Source of the DNA: Tricharina praecox
Lineage: Eukaryota
NCBI RefSeq assembly: GCF_024521635.1
Contig: NW_026250404.1
Coordinates: 2,294,001 to 2,358,000, forward strand
Length of the DNA: 64,000 nt
Direction: 5' to 3'
Below the pieces are notes generated by a model, which worked only from the letters and a program-made list of their open reading frames with translations, searched no databases and was not told the origin of the DNA. Both the position numbers and the translations under genes were made by a program. Shown here piece after piece: positions 3,977-40,123 of the stretch. Position 1 is the stretch's first letter. Each line of letters begins with the position of its first letter.

Positions 3977-6451
3977 CTAATGCGAAATGTACTGGAAAAC
4001 AGCACTGACAATGTCCTGCCCGCTCTCCTGCCGCAACAGCAGATCCTGAATGTTACCCAGTCCCCCTCCCTTCTTGTTCGTAAAATGATTCCAAGTACTA
4101 GTATCACCGTATAGGATAGCAGGCGCGCGGATGATCTGTTTCCCATCTTTGCAGCGCTTACACTTGAAGGTATCATGCGTATCGCTGTTGGTTTCCGGTA
4201 CGTACTCAAACAACTTCCTCAAGTCCTCTCCGTTGAAATGGCGCTCGACATCTTCGGCCGAGTCCACGACGCAAGAGGAAAGCGACTGCTTGTGCGATTG
4301 ACGCTGGAAGATCTTCTCTTCGATCGAGCCGGTGGTGATGAATCGGTAGACGAAGCAGTCCTTCTTCTGCCCGTCACGCCAGACACGAGCTAGAGCTTGC
4401 TGATCGGCGGCGGGATTCCAGTCGGGATCGAAGAGGACCAGTCGGTTGGCGCCGATGAGATTGAGACCGCAGCCTCCGGCCTTGGAGGACAGAAGGAAAA
4501 TGAACTCGGATCCCTCGGGATCGTTGAATTTGTCGACGAGCTTCTGACGCTTGTTGACATTCATCGTTCCGTCAAGGCGTAGATTGCCGTAGCCCCTCGA
4601 TCTGCACAGCTTCTCGAACACATCCAGGGTCTGCGTGAAATTGCTGATCAGGACGATCTTGTCGTTCGTGTCCTGACGGATGCGGGCCAACATGCGATCG
4701 AGGACCTGCATCTTGCCGGAATACCAGGTATTGACCTCACGGTTTCGACTGCCTCTGGCATCCTTGGGAACAAAATCCTCGGGGAAGAATTGCTCACAAC
4801 CTGGGAGGTCGTCGGGAAGGTTGAGGAGATCCGGGTGATTGCAGAGTTTCTTGAGCATACCGATGGCTTTGAGCGGCTGCGAGCCCTTCCCTCGAAGGAG
4901 AGACTTGATTTCGGGCGAGGAGATGAAATAGCGATACAGAGCATCCTGGAACGGAGCAGGCTTGCAAAAGACAACGTGCTCGTACTTCACCGGAAGATAT
5001 TTCGAAAGGATGTCGTTCGTCCGTCGGATGATGAACTTGTTGACTATGCCAAGAAGTTCCTTCAGACAGGTGTCACCCTTTTCGCGGTCCTGGCTTGATC
5101 CCAGCGAATCGCGACCCTTGAGAATGGGATTCTCATACTTCTTGCGGAAATCCAGTCTGGTACCGAGTAGACCAGGATTTGCAAAACTGAGAAGCGAGAA
5201 GTACTCGGTGAGGTCGTTCTGAATAGGTGTTCCGGACAGGATAACCCTTCTATCAACTTTCAGCTCGTTCAGAGCCTGGTAGGTTTGGGATTCGGCGTTC
5301 TTGAGGCGATGACCCTCATCGCAGAGTAGAAGCCCGATGTGCACATCCCTCAGCTCCTCCGAGTATAGCCGCAACGTTTCGTAGGAGACAATGATCACTG
5401 GTCTGATCACACTCCTGCCCGACGAGATGGCCCACTGTTTGAGCTGAGAAGTGAGTTCCGCCTTCGTAGCTTTGCCGTCGATGGCGAAAGGGATTATCGC
5501 GTCCTTGCCCAACCATTTCACCAACTCGTTGGCCCAATTGCGAACGAGTGACGAAGGACAAGCAATGACACATTTCTGAATGGTAGATTTCCCGGGTTCC
5601 GGTGACTGCTTGAGCAGTGTCCACATGAGGGCAATGCATTGAAGCTATCATCGAGTCAATCAGCTACAGCTCAAGCTAATGATGCCCATGCAAGCGCGGG
5701 GGGAGGGGGGGCTTACTGTTTTTCCGAGACCCATCTCGTCAGCCATGATGCACCCTTTAGCATCACTATCCACGAGACCTGTCGTACACCTATAGAGGAA
5801 TTTGACACCCTCGATCTGATGTGGCCGCAAGACCTTCGCCAGCCTGGGATCGATAACCACCGGCACCTTTGGCACCTCCTTTTCCTTCGCCTGATCCAGG
5901 CCCAAAATCTCCTTCAAGCTCCTGTGAACCTTACTGATGGGCTTGACCTCCAGCTTCGGCGCCTCACCATCCTGCTCGATGATCTCGATCTTCTTATCGT
6001 CGACAGTCGGATCGTACAGGACGATGGCGAACTCGCCACTGGGATCATGGAGCGGCCGCGCAATGAAGTTAACACTCTTACGCATACCCAGGGCCGGCGC
6101 AGGGCGATGCGGATTGTATCCACCAGCATTCTTGTCCGCGAGGGGAACGGCAAACCGGGCCCGGAACACCGTATCCTTATCCTTGGGCTTGAACACGGGA
6201 AACGCCTTGTTCACCTGGAGATTGCCAAAGACCTCGCGGTCCTCGCCGTCGCCGTCCGGCTTGAAGCCGCCATCATCGTCGCAGTCGTCCGCGTCCGCGT
6301 CTTTGTACGATACTTTGCGGCGTTTACGCGGTGGGAGGACCGTTTTGCGTATGGGCGCGGCGGAGCCGGGGCACTTGAAGGGTGTGGAGAGACGCGCGAG
6401 AGGGTCGGATTTCTTGGGAGTGGGAGTTGCAGTGCCACGGGGGCGAATCAT
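3977..6451 (-). CDS. RAD54: DNA repair and recombination protein Rad54, Snf2-family translocase (~800 aa, 2 exons: 6451-5717, 5644-3977)
   Basis: Rad54 N-terminal motif (ARPLHDPSGEFAIVLYDPTVD...VPVVIDPRLAKVLRPHQIEGVKFLY). Helicase motifs ADEMGLGKT, DEGH, LSGTPIQNDL, LLSSKAGGCGLNLIGANRL and DQQALARVWRDGQKK. A GTAAG...TAG intron follows GKT. Confidence 0.96.
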
Positions 6452-6562
6452 CGGGGTGATTTGTGTTGATATAAAAAATGGGAAATTGGTGAGCTTGAAG
6501 CGGGGAATAATGTTGTGGACGTGAGGAAGATAGAGCAAATGGAAGCATGAGGGGTGACTCAG

Positions 6563-6568
6563 ACGCGT
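6563..6568. promoter_or_regulatory. MCB-like element (ACGCGT) upstream of RAD54
   Basis: Exact ACGCGT ~110 bp upstream of the inferred RAD54 ATG. MBF binds ACGCGT at fungal G1/S and DNA repair genes. A hexamer alone is weak evidence. Confidence 0.45.
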
Positions 6569-6698
6569 AGTCACGTGTGTGGCAACTCTGGCCCGGTTGG
6601 ATTTATCATCCTTCGCACGGACAATTGGCCACATTCTGGGCTGTCAAGACCTACCTAGTATGGATTTAGAGTTGGTTTGATAATCTACATAACCGATG

Positions 6699-8072
6699 GA
6701 CCACCTCGGTTTCATCCCGAGACTATCACAAAATGTCACTCGACAGAACCCGATGTTCGCAAATACCTTCCATAAGTACTGTCGCCGGTCGAGTGATCTG
6801 TTACTTGATACTGATTGGCCAAAGAACGGCGGTTCCAGATGAGGGGTTTTAACCCCCATTCGCCACGTCATGCACAGAAGAACGCGAACATCGACTTCTA
6901 CCAACATCTACCGCGAACGAGATCACACTTTTCGACCGGGCAGTTACCCTTCATCGCGCATTCTTTAAGCCTCACTGAGCGCACATCCTATATCCCGTCG
7001 CCAATGGCAAAAATGTTGCGGGAAATTGACCAGGGCGCCAGTAAAGTCGGCAGGCTGATCGCCGCGAACCCTCTTGTCATCAGCAGCGCCATCAGCGGCG
7101 CCACCATCGCGCTTTATCCCGATCTCACTCTCGGGACTCTCCTCGAGCCGCTCGGATTCACGGCCGATGGCGTAGTTGCAGGTAACCCACACGTCTACCT
7201 ACCCCACTCCAACCACACCGCTGACAGCGGGCGGGGCGGCGGGTACAGGCAGTCTTGCCGCGTCGGCGCAATTGGCGCTCGGAAATGTAGGCGCTGGCAG
7301 GATTTTCGATTTCTGCCAGAGTATCGCCAGCGGGGGGATCGAGACATCGACGGTTGCGGCGGCCACGGGTGCTGCGGTCGCCACTGCGTTCCGGATGGTG
7401 GCTGCTATGAGGAAGGAGGCCGCCAACAAGGAGGAGGAGGAGGAGGAGGAGCCTGCCCACGACTACGAGGAGGAGTTTCGCAGCGAGCGCTCGTCCAGCC
7501 CGCCTCCTCCTCCTGCTGCTGCTTCTAGAACGGATGGGCGCGGAGGATGGGGCCCGGGTGGACACAGCCCCATATTCATAGATCACAGCAAAGTGTGCTG
7601 GCTGTGTCGTCTGAAGTGGGGACCCGAGTGTCCAGATCTACCAAAAACCACCTGGGCCTGCGAACGGTGTGACACACCGTTATGTCTCAGCGGTGAGCGC
7701 AACTGTTTTCGGGAATTCCACGACCACTAGGGAGATGATATTGGTGGCTGGAGGAGGGGGGGCTGCTCAGGAGGCGATGAAGTCGAGCACTGTTTGCTGG
7801 AGAATGTTTGTGTGAGGGTTTGTATGTACTGCAGAGCATTCCTTGGTTGCGTTGCGGGTTTTATGAATGAATTGCATTTGCTTTCTGCTTGTTCTCCTGT
7901 TTATATGTACACCGTATATTGGAAATTATTGATGATGGTCCGACTCAGAGAACAGGTCAAATCTCAGAATGCTGCAGCTTGGGCCTTTGATCCTTTCTCT
8001 ATCTTCTTCGATTTGGCTTTCGGTTTGGTTTTGTTATTGTTTCTGTCATTATTTTTTTAGACATTCGGCAGT
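6699..8072 (+). repeat. Copy 1 of a ~1.4 kb dispersed inverted duplication (partner ~38653-40123)
   Basis: Aligns by eye with the reverse complement of 38653-40123, from 'gaccacctcggtttcatcccgagactatcacaaaatgtca' to 'tcttcttcgatttgg...attcggcagt'. The match covers the promoter, both exons, the intron and the 3' region. Boundaries are approximate. Confidence 0.92.
7004..7730 (+). CDS. Chimeric protein: IFI6/IFI27(ISG12)-like domain + acidic/Pro linker + piggyBac-type Cys-rich zinc finger (219 aa, exons 7004-7181, 7249-7730)
   Basis: Intron GTAACC...GCTGAC...CAG (7182-7248). Splicing gives LGFTADGVVAGSLAASAQLALGNVGAGRIFDFCQSIASGG. The C-terminus reads CWLC..TTWACERCDTPLC..RNCFREFH. The paralogous copy has the same exon structure. 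Confidence 0.8.
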
Positions 8073-17906: not shown

Positions 17907-18299
17907 GGCGAGCGGTGGGGACGGGAGGAGGGAGCGAGGGAGGAGGGAGCGAGGGAGCGTGGAGGGAGGCACGCAGCGGGGGTCGTTCGCGGAGCCGAGC
18001 AGGGTTGGTGGGGAAGAAAGGAAGGGCACAGGCCAAAAGGATTTGACGTTGGGATGTCTCAGTGGCCCAGCCAATCATAGCGGCCGAGCCATGTCGAGGC
18101 CGACGGTACTAGACATGGTCACGATCAAGCCAACCTCAAGGCAGCGCAGTCACCGCCCCAAAACACGGGAACGACTGCTATCCCTTATTTCCGATACATA
18201 TCCTCGGCGCAAACCCGAGGAGATGCGAGTTACGTAAATGGGCCAGGGGTCTATGCGAGCACAAGCTCAATCCGACAATTCGCGATCGGCACCAAATCT

Positions 18300-18668
18300 C
18301 TGCATCAGGACCGCGAGAGCAGTTTGGGCTTCAAGTAAACTCTTCAAAGGCAGCCGAGTCCACCGCGCTCCCACGTCGGGACCGCAAGAGCAGTTTAGCC
18401 TTCGAGTAAACTCTTCAGAGGTAGCCGAGTCCACCGCGCTCCCACGTCGGGACCGCAAGAGCAGTTTAGCCTTCGAGTAAACTCTTCAGAGGTAGCCGAG
18501 TCGGCCGCGGCATTAACTTTCTGCATCAGGACCGCGAGAGCAGTTTGACCTTCGAGCAAACTGCTCAGAGGCGGCCGAGTCCACTGCGGCATTAACTTTC
18601 TGCATCAGGACCGCGAGAGCAGTTTGACCTTCGAGCAAACTGCTCAGAGGCGGCCGAGTCCACTGCGG
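18300..18668. repeat. Tandem minisatellite, 5 units of 71/79 bp with an internal hairpin
   Basis: GGACCGC recurs at 18308, 18379, 18450, 18529 and 18608. The last two units contain GAGCAGTTTG-N9-CAAACTGCTC. Confidence 0.9.
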
Positions 18669-18889
18669 CCGCCACGGACTTCGTAATAGAGCATTCAACC
18701 ACAGGCAAACGATTGCCGCGCAGACTCGTTCGCTCCATGAACCTGTACGGGTTCGCACTGGCTCCACAGAGGGCCCGTCCCGTACCGAAGAGGAAAAGGA
18801 AAGGACAAGAGGCGGTAAGAGTATTCGGATGTCCGCTGTCGTGATATTCCATCCAGCATAGCATAGGTATGTCAAATCCACCCGCCGCC

Positions 18890-19285
18890 CCGTCGATCCC
18901 ATCTTCTCTCCTGTCGATAGTGCCATATCTATGTGATGGCATATCGAGTGCATCCTTTCCCCCGTCCATCACATCTTCTCTCTTGTCGACGATACTGTAC
19001 TTATGTGATGGCATACCGAGTGCCCCCGTCCATCTCATACTCTCTCCTGTCGATGGTATAGTGGCGGTATAATACCTATGTGATGGCATATCGAGTGTAC
19101 CCGTTCATCTCATACTCTCTCCTGCCGATGGTATAGTGGCGGTATAATACCTATGTGATGGCATATCGAGTGTACCCGTTCATCCAATCCTCTCTCCTGT
19201 CGATGGTGCCGTATCTATGTGATAGAATATCGAGTGCATTCTCTCTCCCGTCCATCCAATCTTCCCTCCTGTCGACGGTGCCGTG
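18890..19285. repeat. Degenerate tandem minisatellite, ~5-6 units of 65-75 bp
   Basis: (C/T)TATGTGATGGCATA-like core at ~18929, 19001, 19076, 19151 and 19216, each paired with CTCTCTCCTGTCGAT. Confidence 0.88.
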
Positions 19286-28462: not shown

Positions 28463-30435
28463 GCATGCAAATCCTCATAGTGACAGACTTTAGTAACTAA
28501 AAAACCGGTCATGCAGTATCAACAGCAAAAGACTCCAGCAAGTTCAGACCGACCATGCAGTTTCAGCATAGTCCGGCAGATGCAGACCGGCCATACAGTG
28601 GGTATCGCCAAAGTGAAAGGCTCCGGTAAGTTGAAGACCAGCCCCGCAGTATCTTCATAGTGAAAGACTCCAGCAAGTTCAGACCAACCATTCAGTATCA
28701 CCATAGTGAAAGTCTCCAGAAAATGCACGCCGATCATGCAGTATCCCCACAGCGAATGACATCAGCATGTGAAAGACCGGCCCCGCAGTATCCCTACAGT
28801 GAAAGGTTCCAGCAGATGTAGACCGGCCATGCAGTATCACCACAGTGAATAACTTCAGCAAGTTCAGACCGACCATGCAGTACTATCCTCATACTGAAGG
28901 ACCGGCCTTGCAGTATCCCCACAGCGAATGACACCAGAAAATGCGGACCGATCATGCTGTACCCCCATAGTGAAAGACTTCAGCAAGTTCAGACCAGCCC
29001 CGCGGTATCTCTGCAGTGAAAGATTCCAGAAAATGCAGACCAACCATGCAGTATTACAACAGTGAAGGATTTCAGCAAATGCAGACCGGCCCTGCAGTAT
29101 CACCACAGTGAATAACTTCAGCAAGTTCAGACCGACCATGCAGTACTATCCTCATACTGAAGGACCGGCCTTGCAGTATCCCCACAGCGAATGACACCAG
29201 AAAATGCGGACCGATCATGCTGTACCCCCATAGTGAAAGACTTCAGCAAGTTCAGACCAGCCCCGCGGTATCTCTGCAGTGAAAGATTCCAGAAAATGCA
29301 GACCGACCATGCAGTATTACAACAGTGAAGGATTTCAGCAAATGCAGACCGGCCCTGCAGTATCACCAAAGTGAAAGATTCCAGCAAATGCAGACCAGCC
29401 ATGCAGTACTATCCCCACAGCGAATGATACCGGCAAGTGAGAGACCGGCCATGCAGTACTATCCACATAGTGAACGCCTCCAGCAAGCTGAGACCGACCA
29501 TGCAGTATCACCAAAGTGAAAGACTCGAGTAAGTGCAAGACCGCCCCCACGGTATGCCCTCAGTGAAAGACTCCAGCAGGTGAAAGACCATCCCCGCATG
29601 ATCCACATAATGAAAGACTCCAGTGAGTTCAGACCGATCATGCAGTACTATCCCACAGCCAATGGCATCAGCAAGTGAAAGACTAGCTATGCAGTAATAT
29701 CCCCACAGCGAATGACACCAGCAAGTGAGATACCGGCCATGCAGTACTATCCTCATACTGAAATACCAGCCCTGCAGTATCCCCGTGGAAAAGAGTGTGT
29801 TTCTGGTAAGCCATCCACTAGCCGTCCGGAGGACCGATGGTGGGGGTTGGAATATTCGGTGCGGTAGCGGGTCCAAGCTTGGTATCTTTCTCTTTCTCTT
29901 TCTCTTGTACCAGTGCCTCCTACACCCGAACATACCACTCCACTTCTCTCCAGAGTCCATCTATCGCTCCAGCGAATCACCTCCACGAGTCCTTCCAACA
30001 ATCCCCACAGTGAAAACCTCCAGCAGGTTCAGACCGACCATGCAGTATCACCATAGTGAAAGACTCCAGCAAATGCTGACCGGCCTTACAGTATCACCAA
30101 AGTGAAATACTCGAGCAAGTGCTGACCGGCCCCGCAGTATCCACACAGTGAATGACACCAGCAGGTGAAAGCCCAGCCCCGCAGTATCACCATGGTAAAA
30201 TACCGGCCCCGCAGTATCCCCACGGCGAAAATGGCTCCAGCATGTTCAGACCGACCATGCAGTACTATCCTCATACTGAAAGACCGATCATGCAGTACTA
30301 TCCTCATACTGAAAGACCGGCCCTGCAGTATCACCGTAGAAAGACTGGCCCCGCAGTATCCCACCGTGAAATAAGACCGGCCCTAGAGTATCCCCACAGC
30401 GAATAACTCTAGCAAGTGCAGACCGACCAAGCAGT
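28463..30435. repeat. 46-bp minisatellite array with 33- and 49-bp variants, a 263-bp higher-order duplication and a ~200 bp unique interruption
   Basis: Consensus ~CAGTATCACCATAGTGAAAGACTCCAGCAAGTTCAGACCGACCATG. Block 28821-29083 is repeated almost exactly at 29084-29346. The array is interrupted at ~29790-29998. Confidence 0.95.
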
Positions 30436-33400
30436 AGCCCCTCAACCTCAACCCCTCAGGTTCGCGGTGAAGCACACCCTCAGTTTATCCTCCGACCTGC
30501 CATTAGCTGTTGTGTTGCCTATGTGCATCGTGTTTTGCCGATTGACCGCGTGACTGACTAGCAGCTGCTGGAGTCCTCCCCGCAGATACCTACCACACTC
30601 TCCTCCCCACAACCAAGCCGCTGACCTCGCCGTCGATAGCCGGTCCGAGTCCTACAGCCCGCGCTCGTTCTGCAAGTTACAGCCGGTAGGTATCGTCGTC
30701 CTTCACCGTCCTTCACCGTCTGGCAGCCCCTGGTCTTCCTACAGGCTACAGTCGGTACGCATTGTCCTCTTATGCCGTCCCACAGTATCAGGCCTGCCTC
30801 GCCGCCGATTGCACACTGTTGTGACAGAGTGAAGGAGGAGCAGTCGGCGGGAGGAAATAAATGTGGTTAGTAGTGACATCGACGTTGGTGGGCATGGCGG
30901 GGCCTACGGTCGACCACTGACGAAGGAGGGGGGACTTAAGCTGGCACCCGTGGGTTTTCTTCTTCTTTCTTGATCGTCATCTCTAACCTCCAATCTCCGC
31001 TCTTTCTTCTGTGTTTGCTCCCTTCCTCGCCACGCTTGTCGACCTATAGAGGCAAAGTTGGCAGAGAGCTCTCGCAAAACTGTTCTCGCCGTGGATATGG
31101 CACTCTCGTTACAGTGGAGACTGGAGAGAGAGAGGAGGTAGAGGTTGATTGTCTATTCTGTAGATGATGATGATGATGAGAGAGGGAGAGAGAGGGGGGG
31201 AGGGGGAGAAGAGGCCTCTCGGACAGCCTCTCAAGCTCGCTCCATCCCCACTGGTTCAGTCCTGAACGTTTCCGACACAAACGTTTGGGCTAAACGGAGT
31301 GGTCTGCGTCTAGGCACTACGTTTTCTTTGTTTGCACGTTCCCCGCGCTTACTGACATGAGTACTTTGTACATGCGTCACTCACCTACACATGCGACTTA
31401 TGGCGCTGCGAGAGTTTGCTGCATTCTTTATCACCATCACTGGCGCGGCTACTAGGTAGTACATCTCCAAAACTGATTGACTCTACCGCACGTCTGGACG
31501 TCTGTACAGCCATGATCTGATAAGGTCGAATGCTATGATGATTAAACAAAACAACTCTACCGCACGTTGTATCGGCTGCAAGGGAGAAGCAGCTGCAGAT
31601 TAGACGCATTCGCCGACTCTGCCACATTCTGAGACGGCTGCAAGCTTAAGTAAGATGCTGCTGCGTGATAGGCGCATTCGCCGCCGTATGTAGTACCTAC
31701 ACTGCCCCGTATTCTAAGACGGCTGCGCGTGTGTAGTATGTATATATGCGTTGCGCATTGTGCGCGTGTGTTCATCGACTCTGCGCATTGTATGATACGT
31801 CATATATATGCGACTCAGAGCGGTTCTGAAAATTAGGCGCATTCTGGTACCAACTTCGCCGTAATCTGAGACCGCTGTGAGTAATCATGTCTTTTGCACC
31901 TTAAGCGCTGTTACCTAACGCTACCGCACTTTATGTCACCTGCGAGGCTGCGAGTAAAAGGCTTGAGCAGAATTCGCGCATTCACATACTGGCAATAACG
32001 CACTTATAGTAAGTGGTGCCTCACCTTGCGCTTAGAGTTCGGCATTGTGGTGAGGCACGACTTATTGGCTGCTCCTGGTATATACCTCAAGCCAGCTCCA
32101 CTTTGCTGCTGATGCTGCTGCTGCGATGGGCTCCCCGTCCCCGTACCCGATGTACCCGTCCCCGATCTCGAATACGGTACTTATTCCGTTTCTTCTTCTT
32201 CTCGGCCATAACTAATATGAACCGCTGTTTTACGGTTCGTATGTTATGTACGTACACACAGACGCCGTCTACCTACCTACCTAGGTTGACATGTATGGGG
32301 GGCCTGCCGCCTGCTGTCACCGTTGATCACTGACCACAGACCACTGACCAGACGTGCAGATAAGTACCTAACCGGGTAGACGCCGACCGGTTTGTTTTTT
32401 GCAGTTGTTCGTTCGGCAGCTCGATTGGGTTGGAACTCGGGGACATGAAAGGGCAAGGCAATTGGTGCAGTTTTCTCAATTCTTCGATTGGTTATTGAAC
32501 TGCCATAAACTGGTGAGCTGGTGAGCTGAGTGTACTGTTTGAACTGACGTTTTTCCCGGTGTTCGAAAAAGTTAGGTAATTGCAGCCTAGCTGTGGGCAG
32601 TATGAAGTACTTCTCACTCACTCGCGTTATGCCTTTCATCCCTTCATACAACCACTAGCGTCGCAGGTACGCTCTCGACTCTCCCGGCCCCGGCTATCTA
32701 TCACACGTCGGATCGTGAGACGCGGCACGCCCTGCAGACTGTTATTTTGTCTCCCGGGAGCCACTGCATGCGTCCCTCTGGGAGCCTCCGGGGTAGCAAA
32801 AACCTCCGTGGCTTCGCCGCCGGGACTTGGAGTCATCGTACTGCGCGCTAACCACTATAAACGGCCGAACCGGTTCAGTTCGACGAAGCGTTTCACGCTC
32901 CTATTCGGTTTCCTATTAGGTTTCCTATTCACATGCAGTTAATTGATGCGCTCCAGTTTCGATCGAAGGTCGGTCTGGACATTCACTCTCGCGGGCGGGC
33001 TTTGTCGACTCGAGTTGAGTTGAGTTGAGTTGAGCTGAATCGGCGGAATGAGGAGGAGGAGGAGGAGGACTCGTCCACCCCGCCGAACGACGACATACGG
33101 TATGCATAATGTGTTCGGTGCAGCCAATCAGCATGCACGCTCGGAAAAAGTCGCCGTCGCCGTCGCAGTCGCAGTTGCAGCCGAGACTTCGCCTCCCATT
33201 CCATCCCATCCCATCTGCTATGTCTCGGTTCGGTTCTCGCGCTCCAGAGTCCGTAGGTGCACGTCCACGCACTCGTTCGGGGACATCACTCCGTCCGTCG
33301 GGAGTGGCTTCACTTTGTACTCTAAATACCTACTCTGACTTGTGTATTATAGGTAGTTCCCTCCCCGCGCACGAAACGAAGCCACATCGACTGCCGACCG

Positions 33401-37525: not shown

Positions 37526-38652
37526 TGAGTCGGGTCGCGTACGGCTGGACTAGACTAGATGTCGTTTCGTTGCGCTGGGCTTGGAGTTTTGTTTGTTTCT
37601 GTTTTTTGTTTTTTTTGCTGTAGCGGGAGGAGTTTGGTTTGACTGTTTGAGCGTGCGAGTAGGAATTGATACAACCCTATATCGGTATGATGTATCTGTT
37701 CTGTTCTGTTTTGTTCCGTCGTCGTCATCGTGTCTGCTGTGACGTCGCAGTCGGAGTCGGAGTCACAGTCGTTTGTGTAGCATCGCATCGCACCGGGCAC
37801 GCAATAGGTAGATAGTGCATCGTTATGGAAGGCAAAGGCAAGGCATCGTTGAATATTTATACTGCAGAGCACCGCTCGCTTTCCCCGCACACACGGACAC
37901 ACACCCATAGACACACACCACACGGACGAGGTGATGGAGGAGGTGACGGAGGAGGTGCTCCGTGCATACTTGGTTATTTAGTTATTTAGGGGACGTCGCC
38001 GACTTCCAAGTTCCTACGGTGCACCCACTGCCCAGTGAGCCAGTGAGCCAGTGCACCCACGCCCCACGGCGGTGATCGCCGCTGCGCTGCGCACACACAT
38101 ACGGGATGGCAGGTTGCGTCGGTAAACGGATGTGCTTGGCGCATGGGATGTCACTCGTGGTGGGGAGAAGCGCGGTGGGGGGGAATCGGAATATACAGGT
38201 AGTAGGTAGTAGGTAGTAGGTAGTAGGTAGTAGGTAGCGCAATCTATAAAAGGTGAAGATGTCCTTGCTGCTTCTTGCAATGAAGCATTGGGGGTCTCAG
38301 CCACTCCTACTAGTGGTGGGTTATCGAGAGCTGAAGTAAATGTGCCGGGCACTCGGTATTAGATACGCACTACGGTAGAGTATCTACGGTAAAGAAGTGC
38401 GGTCTGGAGTTTCGAGGAGACGTAAATGGCGGAAGGATAGTCTTGCCATTTGGGAGGGTGGCAGGACGGAGCGACGACTCGCGAAGAGCTCGGCGGAGGA
38501 GGACTCAGGAGAGGTGCGAAAGGAGAACGGCAGGCTGGAGTCGGTTCATGTTTAGTGCTCATGTTGCGTGGGACGTCCCCTTTCGGTGTGAATTTGGGAG
38601 GATGACGGAGGCGCCCCAACGAGGGATCATGATGTGTTTAATGTTGTCATAA

Positions 38653-40123
38653 CTGGCCGAATAGGTACCTACAAACACAATGACAAACGATAACAAAACC
38701 AACACAAACCCAAATCGAAGAAGAGTAGATCTTAAAGAAAGAAAGGTATGTAGAGAAAGAATCAGACGCGGGCTTTCCGGAGATCCAAGCGGCAACAATC
38801 TGAGATTCAACCTATTCTCTGAGTCGGACCATCAATAATTTCCAATATACAAACAGGGGAACAAGCACAAAGCAAATGCAATTCAATCATAAAACCCGCA
38901 ACGCAACCAAGGAATGCTCCGCATGCAGTACATACCAACCCTCCCACCACATTCTCCAGCAAACAGTGCTTGTTCGACTTCACCGCCTCCTGGGCAGCTC
39001 CCCTCCTCCAGCCACCAAGATCATCTCCCTACCTAGTGATCGTGGAATTCTCGAAAACAGTTGCGCTCACCGCTGAGACATAACGGCGTGTCACAGCGTT
39101 CGCATGCCCAGGTGGTTTTTGGCAGATCCGGACACTCAGGACCCCACCTCAGCCGACACAGCCAGCACACTTTACTGTGATCAATAAATATAGGGCTGTG
39201 ACCGCCTGGGCCCCAACCTCCGCGGCCCTCCGTTCTAGAAGCCGCCGCCGCCTGCGCAGGCGGTGACGGGCTGGCCGAGCGCTCCCTGCGGAACTCGGCC
39301 TCATAGTCGACGTTGGCAGGCTCCTCCTCCTGCTCCTCCTCCTCCTCCTGGTTGGCGGACTCTTTCCGCATAGCAGCCACCACGCGGAAAGCAGTGGCGA
39401 CCGCAGCACCCGCCGACGCCGCAACCGTCGATGTCGCGGACCCCCCGCTGGCAGCACTCTGGCAGAACGCGAAGATCCCGCCGGCGCCTACGTTTCCGAG
39501 GGCGGACTGTGCCGACGCCGCAAGACTGCCTGTATAGTACGCGCCGCCCCCCGGCCGCTGTCAGCGGTGGTGTGGTTGGAGTAGGTAGGTAGGGAAGTAG
39601 GTTACCTACCTGCAGCTACGCCATCGGCGGTGAATCCGAGCGGCTGGAGGAGCGTCCCGAGAGTGAGATCGGGATACAGCGCAATGGTCGCGCCGCTGAT
39701 GGCGCTGCTGATGGCAAGAGGGTTCGCGGCGATCAGCCGCCCGACTTTACTCGCGCCTTGGTCAATGGCCCGTAAGAATTTTGCCATTGGCGACGGGATA
39801 TGGGATGTGCGTCCAGTGGGGCTTAAAGATTGCTCGATGAAGGGTAACTATAGTAACTGCCCGGTCGAAGAGTGTGGTCGCGTTCGCGGTAGATGTCAAT
39901 TAGCAGAAGTCGATGTTCGCGTTCGACTTCTGTGCATGACGTGGCGAACGGGGGTTAAAAACCCCGCATCTGGAACCCCCGTCCTTTAGCCAATCAGTGT
40001 CCGGTAGCAGTCTGCAGATCACTCGACCGGCGACAGTACTTATGGAAGGTACCTATTCGCGAACATCGGGTTCTGTCAAGTGACATTTTGTGATAGTCTC
40101 GGGGGGATGGAACCGAAGTGGTC
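38653..40123 (-). repeat. Copy 2 of the ~1.4 kb inverted duplication
   Basis: Reverse complement aligns with 6699-8072, with indels in the non-coding parts. Confidence 0.92.
39033..39787 (-). CDS. Paralog of the IFI27-like/piggyBac-zinc-finger chimeric gene (224 aa, exons 39787-39610, 39529-39033)
   Basis: MAKFLRAIDQGASKVGRLIAANPLAISSAISGATIALYPDLTLGTLLQPLGFTADGVAAG, then intron GTAGGT...CAG at the same position as in copy 1. The C-terminal Cys domain is nearly identical and the frame is intact. Confidence 0.8.

Follow-up and report, generated by a model that had tools for sequence, protein, structure and literature searches.

Transposase-domain domestication is a known route to new genes, and a 64,000-nucleotide stretch of the genome of the fungus Tricharina praecox (contig NW_026250404.1, positions 2,294,001 to 2,358,000; hereafter the window) raises the question of whether a transposase-like zinc finger encoded there twice is a working part of a host gene or transposon debris. 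The window has a GC content of 55%, contains no N and shows a gene structure of fungal type. The finger forms the end of a small gene carried as two inverted copies, copy A on the plus strand and copy B on the minus strand, in which an apparent Ifi-6-16/ISG12-type Gly/Ala-rich hydrophobic domain is followed by an acidic linker of ~50 residues and then by the finger. The finger is very probably a piggyBac-derived cysteine-rich domain (CRD) that has been domesticated as a working module of this fungal host gene, and not a piece of debris. A preliminary description of the locus had already argued that the module is functional, and its argument is now supported by selection on the finger, by homology to transposases and by the splicing of copy B. 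The finger, with no transposase core attached, now makes up the C-terminal end of a small host gene of two exons; this gene is settled among housekeeping genes and has a syntenic ortholog in a related fungus.

Selection on the finger and expression of the gene

In copy B, exon 1 (39610..39787, minus strand, ATG at 39787) is supported by tblastn, the gene model and assembled contigs. It is followed by a predicted 80-nt GT..AG intron of phase 1 (39530..39609) that lies within the Ifi-6-16-like domain, and then by exon 2 (39033..39529), which encodes the second half of that domain, the acidic linker and the zinc finger and closes with the stop codon (39035-39033). The finger comprises the last 56 codons, GHSPIF...FHDH (39036..39203). 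With the copy B exons as queries, tblastn matched a second, plus-strand copy 32 kb away (6944-7727). Its exon 1 (7004..7181, ATG at 7004), its 67-nt GT..AG intron (7182..7248) and its exon 2 (7249..7730, with the finger codons at 7560-7727 and the stop at 7728-7730) repeat the layout of copy B, and the codon and phase of the intron are identical in both. The encoded proteins measure 219 aa (copy A) and 224 aa (copy B), and three in-frame linker indels account for the five extra residues of copy B. The gene models therefore agree with the preliminary description, according to which both copies keep the ATG, the intron position and the frame and differ in linker length by a multiple of three.

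A codon alignment of the two fingers revealed that 16 of the 56 codons differ, 15 of them synonymously, the remaining one being an AAG/AGG (K/R) replacement at codon 19; this matches exactly the count made earlier by hand. By the NG86 method, 15.0 synonymous differences fall on 34.5 synonymous sites and 1.0 non-synonymous difference on 133.5 non-synonymous sites, which gives a synonymous divergence (dS) of 0.65, a non-synonymous divergence (dN) of 0.008 and a dN/dS of 0.012; the LWL85 and maximum-likelihood (ML) values are 0.018 and 0.016, respectively. Since 79.5% of the sites are non-synonymous, the binomial probability of finding at most one non-synonymous change among 16 is 6e-10, and chance is excluded as the source of the pattern. 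Constraint is also tighter on the finger than on the remainder of the gene (1 non-synonymous to 15 synonymous changes vs 28 to 36; Fisher p 0.007), where dN/dS between the copies is 0.25 in the N-terminal domain and 0.17 in the linker; an ML estimate for the linker, with a dS of 2.5, was unstable and was left unused. With a single conservative K/R replacement against 15 synonymous changes since the duplication, the protein sequence of the finger is maintained by strong purifying selection in both copies.

The comparison can be extended to a related fungus, represented by a 41-kb metagenome contig (L001) that carries an ortholog at the syntenic place. Against this ortholog, dN/dS is again lowest in the finger (0.12-0.23), followed by the N-terminal domain (0.30-0.36) and the linker (0.56-0.63). 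The per-domain dN/dS comparison between copies and orthologs that the preliminary description had proposed thus places the finger far below 1.

Two other origins of these differences were weighed. Repeat-induced point mutation (RIP), which the preliminary description had already considered a poor fit, is ruled out by the split between transitions and transversions, 67 to 69 when summed over the regions of the entire duplicated block and 10 to 6 in the finger. A different concern is that recent gene conversion between the inverted copies, and not selection on the protein, lowered dN/dS in the finger. The layout would permit such ectopic exchange, the copies being inverted repeats 31 kb apart, and the flanks of the duplicated block are unexpectedly alike (40 mismatches in 541 bases, vs 46 in 175 at 4-fold degenerate sites and in the intron). 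Conversion would, however, erase synonymous and non-synonymous differences alike, whereas the finger combines the highest synonymous divergence in the gene (15 of 34.5 sites) with almost no replacements, and its longest identical run is about 35 nt. Contradicted by this combination, conversion is a scarcely credible cause of the finger pattern.

The preliminary description had named a lack of expression from both copies as the observation that would count against its interpretation. Copy B is transcribed and spliced, its intron being spliced out in both of two runs, which come from two studies (X1 and X2). In each run, one contig passes directly from 39528 to 39609 and so leaves out exactly the 80 nt of the predicted copy B intron; with the cut shifted by +1, the skipped segment ends in CT..AC on the plus strand, i.e., GT..AG on the minus strand. 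Both runs contain the copy B sequence without a single differing letter, so that exon 2 is 100% identical to these RNA-type contigs. Contig depth is about 400-700 between 38667/38695 and 39864/39910, where the contigs end (38667 and 39864 in X2, 38695 and 39910 in X1), and drops to 4-10 upstream; contig cover is missing at 38600-38656 and, in X2, at 39911-40081. A transcript whose 5' untranslated region (UTR) is no longer than about 120 nt and whose 3' UTR measures about 340-365 nt would account for both the spliced joint and the step in depth. Against this it must be said that both runs were typed as RNA by guess alone and that their contigs carry neither strand nor level. Expression of copy A is merely hinted at, by short unitigs common to both copies that reach a depth of 2760 in X2, vs about 490-950 for the flanking ones specific to copy B.

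Origin of the finger

The finger follows the pattern H2-x10-C13xxC16-x17-C34xxC37-x4-C42-x6-C49-x4-H54, and the eight presumed ligands (H2, C13, C16, C34, C37, C42, C49 and H54) are invariant in all seven fingers of the family. In a 15-sequence alignment that includes nine transposase-type CRDs, variation is absent at P4, C13, C16, C34, C37, C42, R47, N48 and H54 and almost absent at H2 and C49. Searched against 1.84 billion representative proteins, a profile built from the seven family fingers returned 80 matches at E <= 1e-3. A Pfam scan of 41 of these matches (the 27 best after the family's own protein and 14 lower-ranked, mostly long ones) detected the transposase domain DDE_Tnp_1_7 in 12 proteins, at or above the Pfam cut-off in 10, with the finger match at the C-terminus; zf-Tnp_2 reached its cut-off in eight of the scanned proteins, and three were unrelated fn3 proteins. 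Among the transposases, P0018 (605 aa) matches the profile at E 1.3e-7 and P0053 at E 1.5e-4, and BLASTP aligns the finger to P0018 with 25 of 45 residues identical (E 4e-14). The motif HKEFRL, which precedes the finger in P0018, is present in several of the closest short profile matches, which therefore look like C-terminal transposase fragments. In L001, the likeness to transposase-type proteins continues 20-30 residues upstream of the finger (residues 144-228 of P0016, E 1e-12).

Structure prediction points the same way. The AlphaFold (AF2) model of the window finger has a pLDDT of 91, and its best Foldseek match in the Protein Data Bank (PDB) is the piggyBat transposase-DNA complex 9c0f (TM 0.71, rmsd 1.9, probability 1.00). 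VIA aligned the model to residues 515-569 of the same entry over 48 residues (Z 6.0, rmsd 1.6); the next entry follows at Z 3.5, and C1 domains and the PiggyMac CRD (6zop) at Z 2.0-2.6. On the basis of the profile, the motif and the predicted fold, the finger is homologous to the C-terminal CRD of piggyBac transposases of the PiggyMac/piggyBat type, and the earlier view of the module as transposase-like is borne out by the profile matches, the BLASTP alignment to P0018 and the piggyBat-like predicted fold. Judging from the model, the finger would fold as a two-zinc, C1-like cross-brace, in which the upstream His and the terminal His would act as ligands.

PMC8086355 describes the arrangement H...CxxC...CxxC...C...C...H for PiggyMac and proposes it for piggyBat and PLE-wu. 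The window finger shares with the PiggyMac/piggyBat CRDs (6zop and 9c0f; zf-Tnp_2, PF13842) the ligand order of upstream His, CxxC, CxxC, C, C and His, and the upstream His stands 10 residues ahead of the first Cys, as in PiggyMac (H701 to C712). It differs from them in having no attached DDE_Tnp_1_7 core and in its longer spacer between the CxxC pairs (17 residues), which contains an extra, family-specific Cys, C24. The CRD of the Trichoplusia ni (T. ni) piggyBac, with a C5HC2 PHD-like motif (PMC5861402), is unlike the window finger.

Several results weigh against this assignment. The zf-Tnp_2 scores of the exon-2 translations stay below the Pfam cut-off of 24 bits (20.5 for copy B and 21.0 for copy A, E 7e-4 and 5e-4), as does that of the ortholog P0002 (18 bits). 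The Foldseek E-value for 9c0f is just 0.11, because the domain is short, and the model resembles the PiggyMac CRD weakly (TM 0.52, Z 2.1). A sequence-profile search of the PDB returned no piggyBac entry, its best match being a rubredoxin at E 0.017. It could accordingly be proposed that the finger is an independent rubredoxin-like or generic zinc knuckle whose likeness to transposases is convergent: rubredoxin is the sole PDB sequence match at E < 0.1, the pattern CxxC...DLP..W.CxxC is held in common, and zf-Tnp_2 remains under its threshold. The profile, however, reaches many bona fide piggyBac transposases at their extreme C-terminus; the G-H-x-P motif and the ERNCF..H tail, both missing from rubredoxins, align with them; similarity in L001 runs upstream of the finger; and no other structure matches as well as the piggyBat CRD. 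We consider convergence very improbable. Membership in the rubredoxins was also examined directly and rejected, as the match covers 28 residues only, at 18.2 bits, and rubredoxins lack the tail and three more of the conserved ligands of the finger; we take the rubredoxin match as a shared knuckle pattern.

No full transposase accompanies the finger in the window. Pfam detected no transposase domain, DDE_Tnp_1_7 (PF13843) included, in 116 open reading frames (ORFs) of at least 130 aa across the window, and tblastn with seven transposase-type proteins found matches in the window at the two fingers only. This sets the gene apart from domesticated piggyBac genes such as PGBD1-5, PiggyMac, Tpb2 and CSB-PGBD3, with which it otherwise shares a syntenic locus, purifying selection, fusion to host exons and a promoter of host type: it has kept only the last ~56-85 residues, it is fungal, and its partner is a small hydrophobic domain of Ifi-6-16 type and not SCAN, CSB or another nuclear domain. 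The eight domesticated piggyBac elements tabulated in PMC5381638 are animal and ciliate and derive from the transposase itself, and the portion of that source available to us does not describe the capture of a CRD alone. Within the literature library searched, no work combines 'Ifi-6-16' and 'piggyBac', and among publications on piggyBac domestication in fungi, judged by titles and the openings of abstracts, no such fusion was found.

The partner domain and the possible ligand

As judged from sequence comparison, the N-terminal half of the protein is an Ifi-6-16/ISG12-type domain. Spliced orthologs P0002, P0003 and P0005 score 40.1, 35.7 and 35.2 bits against Ifi-6-16 (PF06140; cut-off 29.1), and the window protein can be aligned to the orthologs across the full Ifi-6-16-like domain, with its N-terminal ~110 residues alignable to the Ifi-6-16/ISG12 family; the hydrophobicity of the domain is moderate and its content of Gly, Ala and Ser high. 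The Pfam cut-off is passed by the orthologs, the window exons having been scanned singly and unspliced (13.1 and 11 bits for the exon-2 parts, nothing for exon 1). The full-length AF2 model of the ortholog P0002, built on a 5-sequence alignment, has a mean pLDDT of 35 and is uninformative on membrane helices and on the packing of the domains. A search of the ESM Atlas with P0002 gave no usable match. Ifi-6-16 relatives that have no finger, P0085 and P0086, occur in two named Pezizomycetes; they share with the window protein the core PLGFT..G..AGS.AA..QS...G..FAFCQSA..GG, while their C-terminal tails are unrelated and the finger is missing. The existence of these finger-less relatives of the N-terminal domain marks the gene as chimeric.

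The family is small, with five clusters at 90% identity among 5.8 billion proteins and one 50%-identity representative among 1.84 billion. P0087, a candidate second copy, was rejected, since it and P0004 come from one locus, P0087 having the longer ORF upstream. Within the protein collection, three homologs on contigs of ~1 kb are intronless and two on read-through contigs carry an insert at the same codon, a difference that fits spliced transcripts in related fungi. The ortholog intron in L001 (10170-10238) lies at the same codon and starts with GC, not GT (GCATGT..ACAG); spliced homologs support its removal.

What the finger binds may be approached through its charge. The six domesticated fingers compared have isoelectric points (pI) of 5.0-6.4 and net charges of -1 to -5, whereas nine transposase-type CRDs have a pI of 7.75-9.2 and net charges of +1 to +6. 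The linker, too, is acidic, with 14 acidic residues and a pI of 4.3-4.4. The PiggyMac CRD resembles the window finger in being acidic; with a pI of 5.48, it failed to bind DNA in vitro and showed weak binding to the histone H3 tail (PMC8086355). The loss of positive charge, together with the PiggyMac-type motif, makes binding to piggyBac ends doubtful, and since finger and linker are acidic, unlike the basic CRDs of transposases, a basic protein segment is a likelier ligand than transposon-end DNA. We tentatively suggest, putting the chance somewhat below even, that the finger binds a basic protein segment and not transposon-end DNA, and that the Ifi-6-16-type domain holds it near a membrane. 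The segment could belong to a histone tail or to another protein, and the ISG12-like domain would keep the finger in the vicinity of the membrane.

An argument against this suggestion is that the closest structure, the piggyBat CRD, was solved in a protein-DNA complex. The finger could accordingly still be a sequence-specific DNA binder that recognizes piggyBac-like ends or motifs related to them and might serve, for instance, to repress transposition or to regulate transcription. R47 and N48, invariant from transposases to the host gene, would suit such a role, and the T. ni CRD binds TGCGT motifs in transposon ends (PMC5861402). The opposing evidence consists of the negative charge of all six domesticated fingers, set against the positive charge of the nine transposase-type CRDs, the acidic linker immediately upstream of the finger, and the failure of the PiggyMac CRD, whose ligand arrangement is equal, to bind DNA in vitro (PMC8086355). 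In addition, the hydrophobic Ifi-6-16-type half would be an atypical partner for a soluble DNA-binding factor, and the window (116 ORFs, tblastn) contains no piggyBac-like element that could supply targets. We regard continued DNA binding as unlikely, although it is a serious contender, and retain the binding of a basic protein segment as the tentative proposal.

Inverted duplication, flanking conservation and meaning

The two copies form the one inverted repeat pair that a blastn comparison of the window with itself detected, 6699-7982 against 40123-38785, with 84% identity over 1356 columns. In copy A, the 5' flank of the duplicated block (6699..7003, 24 mismatches in 305 aligned bases) is intergenic and is shared with the divergent Rad54 gene (3980-6643, minus strand); the 3' flank spans 7731..7982 (16 mismatches in 236 aligned bases). 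The corresponding parts of copy B, on the minus strand, are the 5' UTR and promoter section of the block (39788..40123, with limits taken from blastn) and the 3' UTR (38667..39032), which is delimited by contig ends and can be aligned to copy A down to about 38700-38785. The duplicated unit thus measures roughly 1.3 kb; it begins some 210 bp ahead of the transcript and stops near the transcript's 3' end. Between the inverted copies, the segment 7983..38784 contains, by Pfam on ORFs and tblastn synteny, the WD40, class II tRNA synthetase, PARG-like and amidohydrolase genes. Two internally repetitive stretches also lie there, 28464-30441 (between the PARG-like and amidohydrolase genes) and 18287-19284, each with many overlapping self-matches of 65-88% identity.

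Gene order was compared with that in L001, where it reads Myb(-), Rad54(-), gene(+), amidohydrolase(-), PARG-like(-). In the window, the order is Myb(-), Rad54(-), copy A(+), WD40, tRNA synthetase, PARG-like(+), amidohydrolase(+), copy B(-), Utp13(-). Copy A keeps the ancestral 5' neighbour (Rad54) and copy B the ancestral 3' neighbour (amidohydrolase), which indicates that the ~31 kb between them are inverted (window 7983-38784 against L001 10703-18429). Synonymous divergence is 0.42 between the copies and, between the window and L001, 0.60 for Rad54, 0.68 for the PARG-like gene and about 1.0 for the gene itself. The dS of the copies lies below the species-level values, and the duplication, or the last homogenization, is therefore younger than the species split. 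Between the species, the chimeric gene evolves much faster than its neighbours: in tblastn, exon 1 is 52-60% and the finger 67-69% identical, with a dN of 0.34-0.36, and Rad54 is 97%, the amidohydrolase 87-88% and the PARG-like protein 85% identical. For the Rad54 exon, a search confined to proteins of more than ordinary length gave its best named matches, at 78-82% identity, in Pezizomycotina.

Inverted duplications at inversion breakpoints are known mainly from Drosophila. The most likely origin of the duplicate is an inverted duplication at a breakpoint, made in the same event as the inversion; an equally possible order of events is that the gene was duplicated first and that the repeats then recombined. 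Like the duplications expected under the staggered-break model (PMC1885836), the 1.3 kb block stands inverted at both ends of the inverted segment, and each copy has one ancestral neighbour; unlike them, it holds a complete functional gene, and both copies are intact. Two circumstances weaken the link between duplication and inversion. L001 ends ~10 kb downstream of the gene, so that a second copy 31 kb away would fall outside it, and with two genomes the direction of the inversion is unpolarised.

Sequence divergence between the copies is uneven along the block. It amounts to 6.6% in the promoter, 10.1% in the 5' UTR and 6.8% in the 3' flank, vs 27.8% (30/108) at 4-fold sites and 23.9% (16/67) in the intron. 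The flanks (6699-7003 and 7731-7982 against 39788-40123 and 38785-39032, with 13 gap events) are thus 3-4 times less divergent than the 4-fold sites and the intron (p = 6.5e-10). Read by eye, the motifs GTCGCCGGTCGAGTGAT, CTGATTGGCCAAAG and CCACGTCA are common to the upstream regions of the copies and of the L001 ortholog; the promoter motifs kept there include a 17-mer, a CCAAT-containing 14-mer and CCACGTCA. Because these motifs are kept in L001, regulatory constraint on the promoter and the UTRs appears to be the simplest reading of the flank similarity. Exchange at the edges of the repeat is a possible alternative, with most of the flank alignable to L001 in patches only (65-78%). Rfam gave 0 matches over the whole window, and the conserved flanks are therefore not a known RNA family. 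Both promoters also contain the near-palindrome GGGGTTTTAACCCC (6840-6856 and 39961-39977), centred on TTAA, the target site of piggyBac; nothing else points to a transposon end.

The copies might differ in their fate, copy A losing or changing its function as its N-terminal domain diverges and the finger alone is still held in common. In the Ifi-6-16-like domain, seven derived replacements fall on copy A and two on copy B, and two of the copy A changes, G77R and A80D, affect positions that are invariant in copy B and in five of five orthologs. The 7 to 2 split, however, has a two-sided binomial p of about 0.18, the split over the whole protein is 8 to 6 (p 0.79), and the reading frame, splice sites and promoter motifs of copy A are preserved, as is every zinc ligand. 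Decay or a change of function in copy A is distinctly unlikely on this evidence. G77R and A80D (window 7232-7243) introduce opposite charges three residues apart, within the GG.FAFCQS core.

A broader reading, which we offer as a long shot, would join these elements and make the gene a membrane-anchored piggyBac relic. The captured CRD would have turned acidic, come off DNA and bound histone tails or the transposase machinery, and the anchor would either tether chromatin (e.g., at the nuclear envelope) or make the protein a host inhibitor by sequestering piggyBac-like transposases. The unit would have been copied by the breakage that inverted the 31 kb, and constraint on its promoter and UTRs would be as tight as that on the protein.

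The domesticated finger amounts to a compact natural experiment, in which a PiggyMac/piggyBat-type finger has been freed from transposition and its charge switched from basic to acidic, with the two copies as an internal gauge of constraint. They are, besides, an example of a fungal gene duplicated at the ends of an inversion. As the family is very small, its importance is mechanistic rather than general.

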